From Octopus vulgaris (taxonomy: Eukaryota), in NCBI GenBank assembly GCA_951406725.2, contig OX597840.1:20336001-20400000 (forward strand): DNA of 64,000 nt, written 5' to 3'. Shown here one piece after another: positions 30,804-38,115 of this stretch (the stretch's first letter is position 1; each line of letters opens with the position of its first letter). The position numbers were made by a program, and so were the translations under genes. The notes beneath the pieces are model-generated. The model did not search any database. It had not been told where the DNA came from and was given only the letters and a program-made list of their open reading frames with translations.

Positions 30804-32315
30804 GGAGAGGGGGAGAGGGTGAAACAAAGAGGAAGAGAAAAGGTTAAAAGAAATAAAGAGAGTAAGCTGGAGGGAGGAAAAGGGTAGCTTTGTGCATGTG
30901 TGGATATATGTGTGTGTGTGTGTGTGTGTGCATTTGTGTGTGTGTGAGTGTGTGTGTGCATTTGTGTGTGTGTGTGTGTGCGTGCATTTGTGTGTGTGTG
31001 CATTTGTGTGTGTGTGCATTTGTGTGCATTTATGTGTGTGTGTGTGTATTTATGCGTGTGTGTGTGTCTGTGTATGCATCTGTGTGTGTGCATTTGTGTG
31101 TTTGTGTGTGTGTGTGTGCATTTGTGTGTGTGTGTGCGTTTATGCGTGTGTGTGTGTGCATTTGTGTGCGTGTGCATTTATGTGTGTATGTGCATTTATG
31201 CGTGTGTGTGCCTGTGTGTGCGTTTGTGTGTGTGTGGCTTTTTCTGTTGCTAGCTGAGTTGGGAATCTCAGAGTAACCCCTAAACACCTTCAGTTGACCC
31301 TGAGGGAATCATTCCCAGGGTTGCCACTTGGATAATTTCCAAAATGTTGTGGAGGAGATAAGAGAGAAATCATTTTCGGAATGCAGAAAACTATTCTATA
31401 TTGTTTTCTACTCTAGGCACAAACACTGAAATTTTTGGCGAGGTGGTGGGTGGGTGGTCAATTAGATCAACCTCAGTACGCAACTGGTACTTAATTTATC
31501 GACCCCCTCCCCAAAGGATGAAAGGCAAAAGTCAACCGCGGCAGAATTTGAACTCAGAACGTGAGAAAACTATTCTATATTACAGATAATAAATTACACA
31601 GCAACATCACCAGCGTGGCTGTGTGGTAAGAAGAGAGAGAGAGAGGGGGAGCGAGAGAGAGAGGGAGAGAGGGAGAGAGAGGGGGGAGCGAGAGAGAGAG
31701 GGAGAGAGGGAGAGTGAGAGAGAGAGAGACAGAGAGAGAGACAGAGAGAGAGAGAGGAGAGAGAGAGAAAGAGAGAGAGAGGGAGCGAGAGAGATAGGGA
31801 GAGAGAGAGAGGGAGATAGAGAGAGGGAGTGAGAGAGAGAGAGTGAGAGAGAGAGAGGAGAGAGAGAGAGAGAGGAGTGAGAGAGACAGAGTGAGAGAGA
31901 GAGAGAGAGAGAGAAAAGCAAAAGAGACAGGACTGGAGATACTGAAAGAAAGGAGGCAGAAGAGGACTCTCTAAGCTATGAGATGATCCAGGATTACTTG
32001 AAAACAATTTGAATAAATAAGGATTACGTTTGAGAGAGCAATCTGAATATTGAAGGATTAAACAGAACATTCGTGTCCATAACCTCCACCAGTCTTGGCG
32101 AAGGTACAAGGGTCATGCACTCTGACCTTCCCCACAGAATCATCATGTAAAAATGAATTGTGTGTGTGTGTGTCTGTGTTTGTCCCCCTGTCACTGTTTG
32201 ACAACTGGTTTTGGTGTGTTTCTATCCCCCGTAACTTAGCAGTTCAGCAAAAAGAGACCAATAGAATAAGTACAAGGCTTGAAAGGAAAAAAAGAAAACA
32301 AACATTCTGGAGTTG

Positions 32316-33445
32316 ATTCATTTGACTAAAAAAATTATTCAAGGCAGTGCCCCAGCATGGCCGCGGTCGGTCTAATGACCGAAACAAGTAAAAGATAAAA
32401 AAAACAAACAAAAGATGTGAAGGAAGAACGTAGTCATAGCGGAAATTAATTCCAGAGGGAGCGTTGTTAATTTGGGGGAAGAAGGATTGGATTAAAATTA
32501 ACGAAACGACAACTGATTAGTAGATAACACGGGGAGTAATACAAGGTAATAGGGGGATGCAAAAGTGGGGGCAAGCAGGCGTTTCATGCCAAGGGGACCG
32601 AGGAATGATTCATTTGACTAAAAATTATTCAAGGCAGTGCCCCAGCATGGCCACGGTCTAACGACCGAAACAAATAAAAGATAAAAAAACAAACAAAAGA
32701 TGTGAAGGAAGAACATGGTCATGGCAGGAATTAATTCCAGAGGGAGCGTTGTTAATTTGGGGGAAGAAGGATTGGATTAAAATTTACGAAACGGTAACTG
32801 ATTAGTAGATAACACGGGGAGTAATACAAGGTAATAGGGGGATGCAAAAGTGGGGGCAAGCAGGCGTTTCATTCCAAAGGGGACCAAGGAATGATTCATT
32901 TGACTAAAAATTATTCAAGGCAGTGCCCCAGCATGGCCACGGTCTAACGACCGAAACAAATAAAAGATAAAAAAACAAACAAAAGATGTGAAGGAAGAAC
33001 ATGGTCATGGCAGGAATTAATTCCAGAGGGAGCGTTGTTAATTTGGGGGAAGAAGGATTGGATTAAAATTTACGAAACGGTAACTGATTAGTAGATAACA
33101 CGGGGAGTAATACAAGGTAATAGGGGGATGCAAAAGTGGGGGCAAGCAGGCGTTTCATTCCAAAGGGGACCAAGGAATGATTCATTTGACTAAAAATTAT
33201 TCAAGGCAGTGCCCCAGCATGGCCACGGTCTAACGACCGAAACAAGTAAAAGATAAAAAGACAAACAAAACACGGTCATGGTGGGAATTAATTCCAGAGG
33301 AAGCGTTGTTAATTTGGGGGAAGAAGGACTGGATTAAAATTAACGAAACGAAAACTGATTAGTAGATAACACGGGGAGTAATACAATGTAATAGGGGGAT
33401 GCAAAAGTGGGGGCAAGCAGGCGTTTCATGCCAAGGGGACCGAGG
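32316..33445. repeat. ~286-bp tandem repeat, 4 copies (SINE-A 3' end plus flank)
   Basis: ATTCATTTGACTAAAAATTATTCAAGGCAGTGCCCCAGCATGGCC at 32316, 32608, 32894 and 33180. Confidence 0.92.
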
Positions 33446-33514: not shown

Positions 33515-33649
33515 CTGAGCCAAACAATAAAGGAATTCCAGTAGGATGTTAGAAGGACGGTCAAATAGTTAATGACGAGGCTGGATAATGAATGAACGTT
33601 GAGGCTCCCGGGAGGTTTGCTCCGGCCAACAGACACGGCTTGGACATTT
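33515..33649 (-). CDS. Putative upstream coding exon of the ABHD4/5 gene (135 bp, hydrophobic)
   Basis: ttttccag|A AAT...CTC AG|GTTTGT; open, phase 2 to 2, joins in frame to the 86-bp exon: NVQAVSVGRSKPPGSLNVHSLSSLVINYLTVLLTSYWNSFIVWL(S). No recognised homology. Confidence 0.55.
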
Positions 33650-33821
33650 CTGGAAAATAGTCAGTGATCTTGGCATTTTTTTCTTTTTTTTGCATTTATT
33701 TGTATTGTTTTTATTTTGCTCTTTTGTTTTTTACTTGGGTGTGTTTGCATGTGTATGTGTGTGTCATGGGAGTTATGTATGTATATGACATACATGCACA
33801 AATATATTATATATATATATA

Positions 33822-34197
33822 TATATGAATAAATGAAAGAATGGAGTCGAACGAAGATGTTAACAAAATTCCTTTACTCTCGACACATGTTTCGAAGACA
33901 GCAGGCTCCCTTTCTTTCCTGATGAGAAGATTGTATAATGCACCCTTTATTCCTTTGGAATGAAAATATGCTGTCTTCGAAACATGTGTCGAGAGTAAAG
34001 GAATTTTGTTAACATCTTCGTTCGACTCCATTCTTTCATTTATTCATATACAACACACAAATTTCTACACATGAACCCGGAGTTTCTACCCTTGACAGGT
34101 CGCTTCAACCGTGTTTGCTGACGTGAATTTGCTACCCAGGTTTCGGTTAAAAGAATTTTCCATGCTGACGATAAACATAGGATAATTCATTCACCTA

Positions 34198-34200
<3 letters not shown>
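33822..34200 (+). mobile_element. (TA)n-embedded Penelope-like foldback element
   Basis: Perfect 82-bp inverted repeat (33822-33903 / 33969-34050) with a 65-bp spacer, then a ~150-bp unique tail; TA tracts on both sides. Confidence 0.75.
33909..34001 (+). ncRNA. Type I hammerhead ribozyme (canonical core)
   Basis: Stem I CCTTTCTTTC / GAGAG(T)AAAGG; core CTGATGA at 33919-33925; stem II GAAGATTGTATA / TATGCTGTCTTC (11 of 12 paired); GAAAC-ATGT-GTC, with predicted cleavage after C33990. Confidence 0.8.
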
Positions 34201-34234
<34 letters not shown>

Positions 34235-34754: not shown

Positions 34755-36440
34755 TAGGAGAATGTGTTGTTGAGAATGCACTTCAATTTCAAAATCTCAT
34801 AAATGTTTCAAATACATTTATTTACCAAACTAGTTTCAACAATATTTTTTGTTTATCAATGGTAAGTGAGCTTTTGCCAACCTTGTCATGGCATACTTGG
34901 AAGTTCAAATATACGAACACACTAGACTGAAATTTGGGGGGAAACTTCCAATAATACTTACTTACTATGGCGCAGGAGTGGCTGTGTGGTAAGTAGCTTG
35001 TTTACCAACCACATGGTTCCCGGTTCAGTCCCACTGCGTGGCACCTTGGACAAGTGTCTTCTACTATAGCCTCGGGCCAACCAAAGCCTTGTGAGTGGAT
35101 TTGGTAGACGGAAACTGAAAGAAGCCTGTCGTATATATGTATACATATATATATATGTATGTGCATGTGTTTGTGTGTCTGTGTTTGTCCCCGTAGCATT
35201 GCCTGACAACCGATACTGGTGTGTTTATGTCCCCGTTACTTAGCAGTTCGGCAAAAGAGACCGATAGAATAAGTACTGGGCTTACAAAGAATAAGTCCCG
35301 GGGTCGATTTGCTCGACTAAAAGGCGGTGCTCCAGCATGGCCGCAGTCAAATGACTGAAACAAGTAAAAGAGTAAAAGAGAGAAAGAGTAAAGAGTCTAA
35401 TCAAAAATGGAACGGAATGTGCAAAAATGATGGCCATCCAAGAGTTACGGAAAACGAGAAAACACCATGACACACATAAAACTCTGTCTTGCGTCATCAT
35501 CCACCAAAACATACCCATCCTTATGAAGGACCCACGAATGAAAAAGGCACAAGGAACACATAGGATTATTAAAAGCAAGAGTCAACCACAATCTCTAAAA
35601 AAATTACTCACCAGTGCCAAATTACCCACCAAAAATACATCTTTCCCTAAACGTACCATTACAAGTGAAAGTGACTCTTTAAAGAAGATCTGAGAAATCA
35701 CAAATCAAATTTCCTTTTTTTACTCTTTTACTTGTTTCAGCCAGTTGACTGTGGCCATGCTGGAGCACCGCCTTCTAGTCGAGTAAATCGACCCCAGGAC
35801 TTATTCTTTGTAAGTCTAGTATTTATTCTATTACGGCGACGTAAACACACCACCATCGGTTGTCAAGCGATGCTAAGGGGACAAACACAGACACACAAAC
35901 ATATACATACATACACACATATATATACATATATACGACGGGCTTCTTCCAGTTTCCGTCTACCAAATCCACTCACAGGGCATTGTTCGGCCCGAGGCTA
36001 TAGTTGAAGACACTTGCCCAAGGTGCCACGCAGTGGGAATGAACCCGGAGCCATGTGGTTGGTAAGCAAGCTACTTACCACACAGCCACTCCTGCGCCTA
36101 TTTTAATTACTATTTTAATTCTCACACTTGTTTTTTTTTTTCAGTATGACTTGACGACCACCACTGAAATTAACGAACCTTGTACATTCTAACAAATTAA
36201 TATACAGTTTTAATTTCAAACTTACACCTTCTGTTTTGAACATGATAATTTATCAAGATTCAAACATTTTGATTTGTCAACATTGAAACTTATAACGATG
36301 TTTTTCTAATTTTACACTTTTACCATTGATAAACAAAAAATATTGTTGAAACTAGTTTGGTATATATGTAAATAAGTGTATTTTAAACATTTACAAGCTT
36401 TTGAAATTTAAGTGCATTTTCAACAACACATTTTCCTATA
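34755..36440 (+). mobile_element. Deleted Penelope-like retroelement with inverted pseudo-LTRs, invaded by two SINE-A copies
   Basis: Inverted termini of ~110 bp (34755-34865 / 36320-36440). The internal ORF remnant 35427-35693, IIHQNIPILMKDPRMKK...IIKSKSQPQSLKKLLTSAKL, resembles the PLE RT-to-GIY-YIG linker. Each terminus has a minimal hammerhead-like motif. Confidence 0.7.
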
Positions 36441-36600: not shown

Positions 36601-38115
36601 TTAAAGAAAAAAAACACTATTATGCAATTCAAACAATGATAGATATAGGCCAAATCATAAATAAAAAATAAAATATATTTTTATAAAACATATAACTAGA
36701 TCACAAAAAGTATAAAAATGAATAATCAATATATAATAAGTAAAAGAAACTACGTATGTTTCATGGCTATAATTAAATTTGAATTACAATTAAATTTAAA
36801 TTTAAAAATCAATTCAATTTAAAATTATAGTCACTCTTCAGGTTAACAATAATAGTTAAATAAATAAGCAAATAGAGTTAAACAATATTTATTAAAAAAT
36901 AAATGAACAAAATAACGATTTTTCTTATAGAAGAAACTCCATTAACTAAATTTGAAATTTAAAACATTTGGATCATTTCCCTACAAAACATTTATTATGA
37001 TAAATATTTAAGGTAAAAAAATAGAGTAAATAGATAGAAGAATGTATTTATCTGTGAAGATATAATTTAGCCTAATTAAAAACATTAATAAACTTAGGTT
37101 AATATCTTTAACCTAGTTATACTCTAATATTTAATTACCAAACTATTTTACAAAACAATCACACTTAATATTTTTAGATTTTAGTTCGCTTATAATAATT
37201 ATAAAATAATGAATACATAAAAATAAGTATCTAAATTATAATCAACAAATATAGTAATTAAAAATCTATATTTTTCCTATCAATAAACATATTGATCTAG
37301 TTATATGCTTTATAAAAATATATTTTATTTTTTATTTATGATTTGGTTTATGTCTATCATTGTTTGAATTGCATAATAGTGGTTTTTTTCTCTAATCTAT
37401 ATATATAAAAGTAAGGCTGTGTGGTGTCTGTCTCCTACGATTTAGATTCCTAACTACTCCCACATTTTGCGGTGCAGTTTAACCAAAACCGGGTATCTTA
37501 TAGTCGTGATTCATATCGAGCCCTTCTGGGTATTAGTGCGCGTCTACGATGAGTCTACGATTAAAAAAAAAATTTACCATAATTTTTTTCCCATTTTTAA
37601 TGCATTTTTTTTTGCTATTATATAAGGGAAGTAACTCTCTAAAAATGTCTACGATGAATCTACGATTTAAAAAATAATTTACCCTTATTTTTTTCCATTT
37701 TTAATGCATTTTTTGCTATTATATAAGGGAAGTAACTCTCTAAAAATGTCTACGATGAGTCTACGATTTAAAAAATAATTTACCCTTATTTTTTTCCATT
37801 TTTAATGCATTTTTTTTGCTATTATATAAGGGAAGTAACTCTCTAAAAATGTCTACGATGAGTACGATTTAAAAAAAAATTTACCATTATTTTTTTCCAT
37901 TTTTAATGCATTTTTTTGCTATTATATAAGGGAAGTAACTCTCTAAAAATGTCTATGATGAGTCTATGATTTAAAAAAAAATTACCATAATTTTTTTCCA
38001 TCTTTAATGCATTTTTTTGCTATTATATAAGGGAAGTAACTCTCTAAAAATGCTTATATAGTTATTTCCCTTACAAACCCGAGCAACGCCGGGGGATACT
38101 GCTAGTTTATATTAA
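36595..38115 (-). mobile_element. AT-rich element with ~100-bp inverted termini and a hammerhead-like motif (Penelope-like derivative), interrupted by a Helitron
   Basis: 36600-36702 is inverted at 37293-37395. The minus strand of 36748-36844 reads AAC-CTGAAGA-GTGACTATAAT...ATTATAGCCAT-GAAAC-ATAC-GTA-GTT. Confidence 0.6.
37396..38105 (+). mobile_element. Non-autonomous Helitron with an internal ~100-bp minisatellite (5 units)
   Basis: A|TCTATATATATAAAAG ... CCCGAGCAACGCCGGG..ACTGCTAG|T, no TSD; repeat unit GTCTACGATGAGTCTACGATTTAAAAAA...AAGGGAAGTAACTCTCTAAAAAT. Confidence 0.9.

Follow-up and report, generated by a model that had tools for sequence, protein, structure and literature searches.

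The Penelope-like elements (PLEs) of the EN+ type are described as inserting in a unit that comprises a partial tandem, an adjacent inverted 5'-truncated copy and a tail of 30-40 bp, so that an inverted truncated copy with a tail is an established PLE layout (PMC8557442, PMC3846280). Elements of the Hydra clade are marked by a DKT motif, an N-terminal RWK, a CxCX5C linker, and CxxC and CxH motifs (Craig et al. 2021, PMC8557442); the set analysed in that paper includes Hydra-1_Obim from Octopus bimaculoides, and its supplement lists one octopus Hydra family, with a protein and a ribozyme different from those described below. In vitro, an Anolis PLE initiates internally at two sites and both strands are extended, and its hammerhead ribozyme needs protein and is dispensable for insertion (PMC11167929), while the PLE hammerheads published so far are reported to cut weakly, as dimers (PMC4209133; PMC6765202). 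A 2026 annotation of octopus repeats counted recently active Penelope-like families, with no clades named (PMC13282606). Apart from Craig et al., the literature searches listed no paper that treats the present family or hammerheads in octopus; Repbase, Dfam and the 2026 library may hold the family.

The window studied here is a 64,000-nt stretch of Octopus vulgaris DNA, in which a hammerhead motif adjoins an inverted copy of its own 3' half, and this feature is a short, ordinary and probably dead copy of an abundant PLE end. Its parts, and the exons of the host gene around it, are as follows.

33802..33826, no strand: (TA)n target tract on the left side, edges approximate, read from the sequence.
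33822..33903, minus strand: inverted 5'-truncated arm, a piece of pseudo-LTR (pLTR), from repeat search and copy comparison.
33903..33903, no strand: head-to-head junction, one base common to both parts, where both alignments stop.
33903..34200, plus strand: forward 5'-truncated pLTR with tail, from a Penelope-like element; identity to the ends of longer copies 94-98%.
33909..34001, plus strand: type I hammerhead motif, stem II long and stem III minimal, from Rfam, folding and copy comparison.
33982..33989, plus strand: self-complementary octamer of stem III and loop 3, predicted dimer interface, from folding and allele comparison.
34051..34200, plus strand: tail, about 150 nt, reaching from one fixed end to the other; in full-length tandem copies it is 5' UTR.
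34200..34233, no strand: (TA)n target tract on the right side, read from the sequence.
33515..33649, minus strand: cassette exon of an ABHD4-like gene, 135 nt, host context, present in isoform X1 and absent from X2.
30693-30607, 28467-27943, 26650-26516, 25202-25011 and 23063-22950, minus strand: further ABHD4-like exons.

An initial annotation, made from the letters alone, had described a canonical type I hammerhead on the plus strand, and folding confirmed the fold with the stem sizes it gave: stem I (33909-33918 paired with 33991-34001) has 10 bp and one bulge, and stem II (33926-33937 with 33967-33978) has 12 positions with one U-U mismatch, with an internal loop and a hairpin of 8 bp as its cap. 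The core CUGAUGA lies at 33919-33925, GAAA at 33979-33982 and GUC at 33988-33990, with the predicted cut between 33990 and 33991, and the invariant core positions (C3, U4, G5, A6, G8, A9, G12, A13 and A14), the A15.1-U16.1 pair and the NUH site are all present. Over 33905-34010 the hammerhead fold reaches -20.5 kcal/mol compared with a minimum free energy (MFE) of -22.5 kcal/mol, for a structure that already includes stems I and II; the ribozyme region has a z-score of -1.9, with 9 of 200 shuffles as stable. The word canonical proved too strong, given the long stem II and an Infernal comparison with Hammerhead_1 (Rfam RF00163), a check proposed in the same annotation, in which a scan of 136 nt matched the model at 18.1 bits with E 0.043, short of the 34 bits set as gathering score. 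An 8-kb Rfam scan gave no hammerhead among its 27 matches, and both this miss and the sub-threshold score are explained by the 49-nt insert held in helix II. In its CUGANGA, GAAA and GUC elements, its G10.1-C11.1 pair and its palindromic 15.1-16.1 segment the motif resembles the dimer-type PLE hammerheads (Cervera and de la Pena 2014, PMC4209133), from which it differs in a stem I of 10 bp and a much longer stem II domain, and this stem II, with 12 positions and an inner hairpin, contrasts with the 3-7 bp and short loop of the Hydra motifs listed by Craig et al. The palindrome ACAUGU named earlier does not fit the register; the unit that pairs with itself in register is the octamer 33982-33989 (positions 15.1-16.1), which here contains two G-U pairs and is predicted to form a duplex of -6.0 kcal/mol, in keeping with the dimer-type short stem III that had been suggested. 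The commoner octamer allele, carried by 61 of 87 copies, is a perfect palindrome. In the ViennaRNA dimer MFE two molecules pair via stems I and III with no clean double hammerhead, and this is therefore not counted as support.

The perfect 82-bp antisense arm was found exactly as annotated, 33822-33903 being 100% complementary to 33969-34050 over 82 nt with a spacer of 65 nt. The hairpin folds at -150.4 kcal/mol (z -24; equalled by 0 of 200 shuffles), so that a read-through transcript would, as had been proposed, be predicted to fold into it. From a fixed internal end that corresponds to 34050 the arm reaches back into the stem II 3' strand; its minus strand bears, in sense orientation, the ribozyme's 3' half without CUGAUGA, and the outer 5 nt or so of the arm are also part of the (TA)n tract. 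The junction at 33903 is backed in addition by the upstream sequence of longer copies. At its other side the element extends beyond the 33822..34050 first assigned to it, continuing to 34200 and then into (TA)n, and both ends lie inside (TA)n, where no target-site duplication can be read.

A DNA search of the species' own genome (2.8 Gb) returned 1,823 candidates, of which 40 were scored, and the sequence common to the copies runs from 33903 to 34200, followed by (TA)n; a 28-nt word from the tail had 651 exact matches in the genome (control 0). The forward pLTR and tail matched the ends of longer copies at 94-98%, which bears out the earlier assignment to a Penelope-like pseudo-LTR with an inverted arm. 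Two of the 20 RT-bearing loci (L054 and L058) are pLTR-ORF-pLTR tandems, and in both the window pLTR is found upstream of the ORF start, which places the octopus hammerhead and tail in the 5' UTR and not, in contrast to canonical EN+ PLEs and the Anolis element PAc, inside the ORF start. The unit of the family measures about 3.2 kb. The window copy itself is without an ORF. An open frame of 785 residues in L048 has matching frames in other copies and aligns to relatives, and in longer copies a single ORF encodes RT and, at its C-terminus, a GIY-YIG endonuclease, by motifs and alignment. Pfam gave no RT or GIY-YIG family in the ORF pieces, so these domain calls rest on motifs and on alignment to unannotated or misnamed relatives, and a PDB search of the ORF gave nothing useful. 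At non-polymorphic sites the window copy lies 0.7% from the family majority, the fifth lowest of 63 copies (median 1.9%), in agreement with the young age suggested before, and it is one of only 2 copies with perfect arms among 26 overlapping pairs. Contigs of four runs, taken by guess to be RNA, cover the L058 pLTR with loose (TA)n ends at both fixed sites; such contigs cannot show strand, start or level. A short upstream ORF also lies in the tail between ribozyme and main ORF (L058:2529-2639; 37 codons in L058), and its length differs between copies.

Judged by motifs and alignment rather than by a tree, the family is a Hydra-type Penelope-like element. Like Hydra-clade PLEs (PMC8557442) it has a single ORF with RT and then GIY-YIG, a DKT motif (kept as SDKT), RW at the RWK position, CxxC and CxH around a conserved E and N with no CCHH, (TA)n targets and, at the 3' end, a type I hammerhead whose stem III is short and near-palindromic, and an inverted 5'-truncated copy is reported there for Penelope-13_HM of the same clade. 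The closest database relatives (P0005-P0008) align with E values of 7e-95 to 2e-83, and three of these four have the RWK, DKT, CxCX5C, CxxC and CxH motifs. By eye, octopus sequence P0001 has CNIC and CKH and no cysteine pair inside the GIY-YIG core. Unlike the Hydra clade as described, the octopus family reads RWL for RWK and carries an Asn-rich spacer where the CxCX5C linker would stand; this linker is missing in P0001 and P0003 and in 6 of 6 sister loci with a readable linker (20 fetched) and is present in P0006-P0008; the absence of the linker is the reason for calling it a derived lineage. It is another family than Hydra-1_Obim, as both protein and hammerhead differ by eye. An in-frame Asn-rich stretch between RT and endonuclease is also reported for Penelope elements of Adineta vaga (PMC3846280), in another host and probably another clade, whereas the octopus stretch replaces the linker cysteines and occurs in several subfamilies. 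The spacer was observed across subfamilies whose protein pieces are about 40-85% identical (L048:2855-5209, L031:6680-7666, L197-L204). Because several subfamilies lack the linker yet land in (TA)n, the family offers a natural test of the published idea that CxCX5C drives (TA)n targeting, and at the level of sequence (TA)n insertion without CxCX5C runs against the suggested link between linker and targeting. An unrelated Hydra-type element with an intact CxCX5C was seen beside a copy of this family (L041:3571-4536, minus strand).

The anatomy of the insertions was read from 90 tail-anchored loci (L067-L156, on contigs C1-C3), the first 90 of 100 listed places among the 651 tail-word matches, with junction and end positions taken from BLAST ends and so off by a few bases. 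Since 30 of the 90 loci had just 1.5 kb upstream, arm counts are lower bounds: an adjacent inverted arm was present in at least 58 copies, and none was seen in the other 32. In 88 of 90 copies the tail end met a tract of at least (TA)3 no more than 25 nt from the tail tag; 49 of the 58 arms started at the site equal to 34050, and 47 of these 49 fixed ends abutted (TA)3 or more. The inner ends of the 58 arms scattered over 2 kb, with 31 arms overlapping the forward part to give a hairpin and 27 having no overlap. At the junctions at least one base was shared in 40 of 58 cases, two were blunt and 16 had inserted bases. Arm length correlated with forward length (rho 0.55, p 2e-5; 52 of the 58, six being dropped with the outer end elsewhere). 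Arms of the same insertion agreed at 186 of 207 polymorphic sites compared with 128 expected, and rare variants were common to both arms about ten times more often than in unrelated pairs; gene conversion between arms could be a partial source of these common alleles. The tail, about 150 nt, occurred on one side only, and sister subfamilies had the same two ends, at about 50-60 and 190-215 nt past GUC.

These data point to a 5'-truncated, two-armed PLE end in (TA)n whose hairpin arose from two truncated cDNAs joined head to head, a reading to which we give a probability of about 0.82. The fixed ends would be internal reverse-transcription start sites at AU-rich spots, on one RNA or on sibling templates, and the two cDNAs would likely be primed from the two nicked target strands; each cDNA would stop at random, the joining would use a few common bases, and a hairpin would form solely where the two cDNAs overlap. 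The head-to-head arms, one-sided tail and pseudo-LTR tandems are like those of canonical EN+ PLEs, from which the family differs in a tail of about 150 nt against the usual 30-40 bp. With two fixed ends corresponding to two internal RT starts, and with AT-rich targets, it resembles Anolis PAc (PMC11167929), but the octopus ends lie in AU-rich spots resembling (TA)n and the PAc start is not homologous to the cut DNA. More tentatively, the RNA itself may aim at (TA)n without the zinc-finger-like linker to which this targeting is credited, the nicked strands pairing with two AU-rich sites 150 nt apart and being co-extended on one template. Such dual priming is somewhat doubtful as it stands, and would account for the pair of fixed ends, for the correlation in arm length and for the alleles common to both arms. 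The hammerhead is inherited from the pLTR and in the active lineage would cut tandem transcripts, either dimerized or assisted by the protein of the element. In the window it likely rides along as a passenger: it runs antisense to the host gene, and any read-through transcript would mask it, since the 82-bp stem would close before all of stem I has been made. The single copy in the window matters little, as pLTR hammerheads and inverted arms are already described for PLEs. The family makes a useful test set for how PLEs produce head-to-head insertions, its thousands of young copies making the mechanism readable from junction statistics, and the 150-nt tail, the long stem II and the (TA)n targeting without linker are the points worth following.

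Whether the arm has a function was first raised by the initial annotation, which saw a built-in switch in which the arm silences the ribozyme in long transcripts and a transcript starting after 33903 cuts itself. The thermodynamics fit such a switch (-150 kcal/mol for the hairpin and about -21 for the ribozyme fold), the forward part begins 6 nt before stem I, so that the whole motif is present, and arm ends are fairly frequent in the stem II 3' strand (7 events in 511 nt against 2 in 1,141 nt beyond), an excess that is partly an alignment artefact at a polymorphic site. Among the 58 armed copies, however, the ribozyme is whole in both parts in 12, in the arm alone in 18 and in neither in 27, and the layout of the window, with a whole ribozyme forward and a partial arm, occurs once where about 6 would be expected if the lengths were independent; a long arm associates with a long forward part (Fisher p 0.001). 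The window copy is moreover without ORF and just 0.7% from the family majority. Because the inner ends range over 2 kb, there is no pile-up at the cut site and the layout is found in 1 of 58, with 27 arms lacking any overlap, a designed switch is unsupported and in our estimate very improbable, and the hairpin is likely a by-product of the mode of insertion. An arm made by fold-back self-priming of one nascent strand of the same element, a model put forward for rotifer PLEs (PMC3846280), would account for the alleles common to both arms and for several junctions at small palindromes or with inserted inverted bases. It is nonetheless unlikely: 27 of the 58 arms hold sequence wholly missing from the forward part and therefore cannot be copied from it by fold-back, and the arm's outer end shares with the other end both a fixed position and a junction with (TA)n. 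Perfect arms adjoining TA might also recall a MITE, a miniature DNA transposon with 82-bp terminal inverted repeats. This was refuted by the one-sided 150-nt tail outside one arm and by the linked RT, the sequence being continuous with an RT-endonuclease ORF, and arm length differs between copies, leaving it next to no probability.

The remaining alternative concerns the host. The ABHD4-like gene lies on the minus strand, with its first coding exon from 49280, and the element is inside intron 1 (49263-33650); the cassette-exon acceptor at 33650 is 172 nt from the arm, and an exon of the window matches an Octopus ABHD4-like protein at 100%. The putative acceptor placed about 170 bp away, with the ribozyme antisense to the gene, belongs to a real exon. 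A-to-I editing is high in cephalopods, and an 82-bp duplex in the ABHD4 pre-mRNA could in principle alter inclusion of the cassette exon, for example through such editing; the inverted repeat folds on either strand, and isoform X1 contains the exon while X2 skips it. Annotations of two Octopus species list both isoforms, however, so that skipping is probably older than the window copy, and we regard host use of the hairpin as quite improbable compared with the joining of two truncated cDNAs. The host pre-mRNA carries the ribozyme in antisense; the sense half that the arm supplies has no first core half and lies paired within the hairpin. The cassette exon (33515-33649) is in frame and adds 45 N-terminal residues that include a hydrophobic stretch, and its acceptor has a short pyrimidine tract after an A-rich run.

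Across the genome a pattern of hammerhead core plus stem gave 3,520 matches (control 0), spanning at least 6 subfamilies told apart by eye. When patterns were anchored in the flanks of the first core half, the one change at the level of a subfamily among the first 100 of 1,885 rows was at N7, U to A in 12 of the 100 rows counted by eye; the six other core positions had scattered changes in 1-5 rows each (same rows, by eye), and the stem positions of these rows varied widely. The second core half behaved similarly (first 100 of 3,103 rows, by eye). The covariation of stems I and II across copies, proposed earlier as a check, gave a mixed picture. In 31 hand-picked rows, which are related to each other and were chosen by a core pattern (the window, L058 and 29 of 40 fetched), pairing holds in 85.9% of cells, and two-sided changes affect 57 cells compared with 28.6 after shuffling. 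Pairs with a two-sided change numbered 8 against 9.0 in shuffles (442 of 500 shuffles as high), pair types numbered 22, below the shuffles, so that two of five covariation measures were no better than shuffled rows, and RNAalifold recovered only the distal stem II, without the hammerhead, and drew pairs across the core. Selection has likely, rather than provenly, kept the hammerhead in the active lineage, as the constancy of the core is offset by the mixed covariation and the RNAalifold failure. Copy ends fell at the cut site no more often than by chance (3 of 33, p 0.51), and a pile-up there was rejected as evidence that cleavage occurs in vivo. A sharp start immediately ahead of the ribozyme was likewise rejected, ends from -30 to +10 being spread out. 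An A6 to G core change was seen on both arms of two insertions, and since the arms share rare variants that include this change, a working ribozyme in cis may not be necessary. The head-to-tail monomers of a non-LTR retrozyme, each with its hammerhead, were not found in the window, which has one hammerhead, and this identity was set aside for copies that are dispersed and head to head.

In the subfamily of L058 a second GUC followed by GAGAG stands 21 nt upstream of the core (L058:2356-2376; 253 exact matches) and might complete a type III fold that uses the same core, in this subfamily only. As a conserved feature this second cut site was rejected: sister subfamilies carry other letters there, U replaces C in 9 of 49 subfamily copies and the site is lost in the window copy. 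Other repeats surround the element in the window. Four tandem copies of about 286 nt, two of them identical, occupy 32306-33433 in the next intron and contain a common short repeat that is also found at 35321. Nested imperfect inverted repeats of 214, 122 and 103 nt (83-90%) at 34969-36098 correspond to two opposite copies of common short interspersed repeats, and a tandem array of AT-rich units of about 101 nt lies at 37565-38000.
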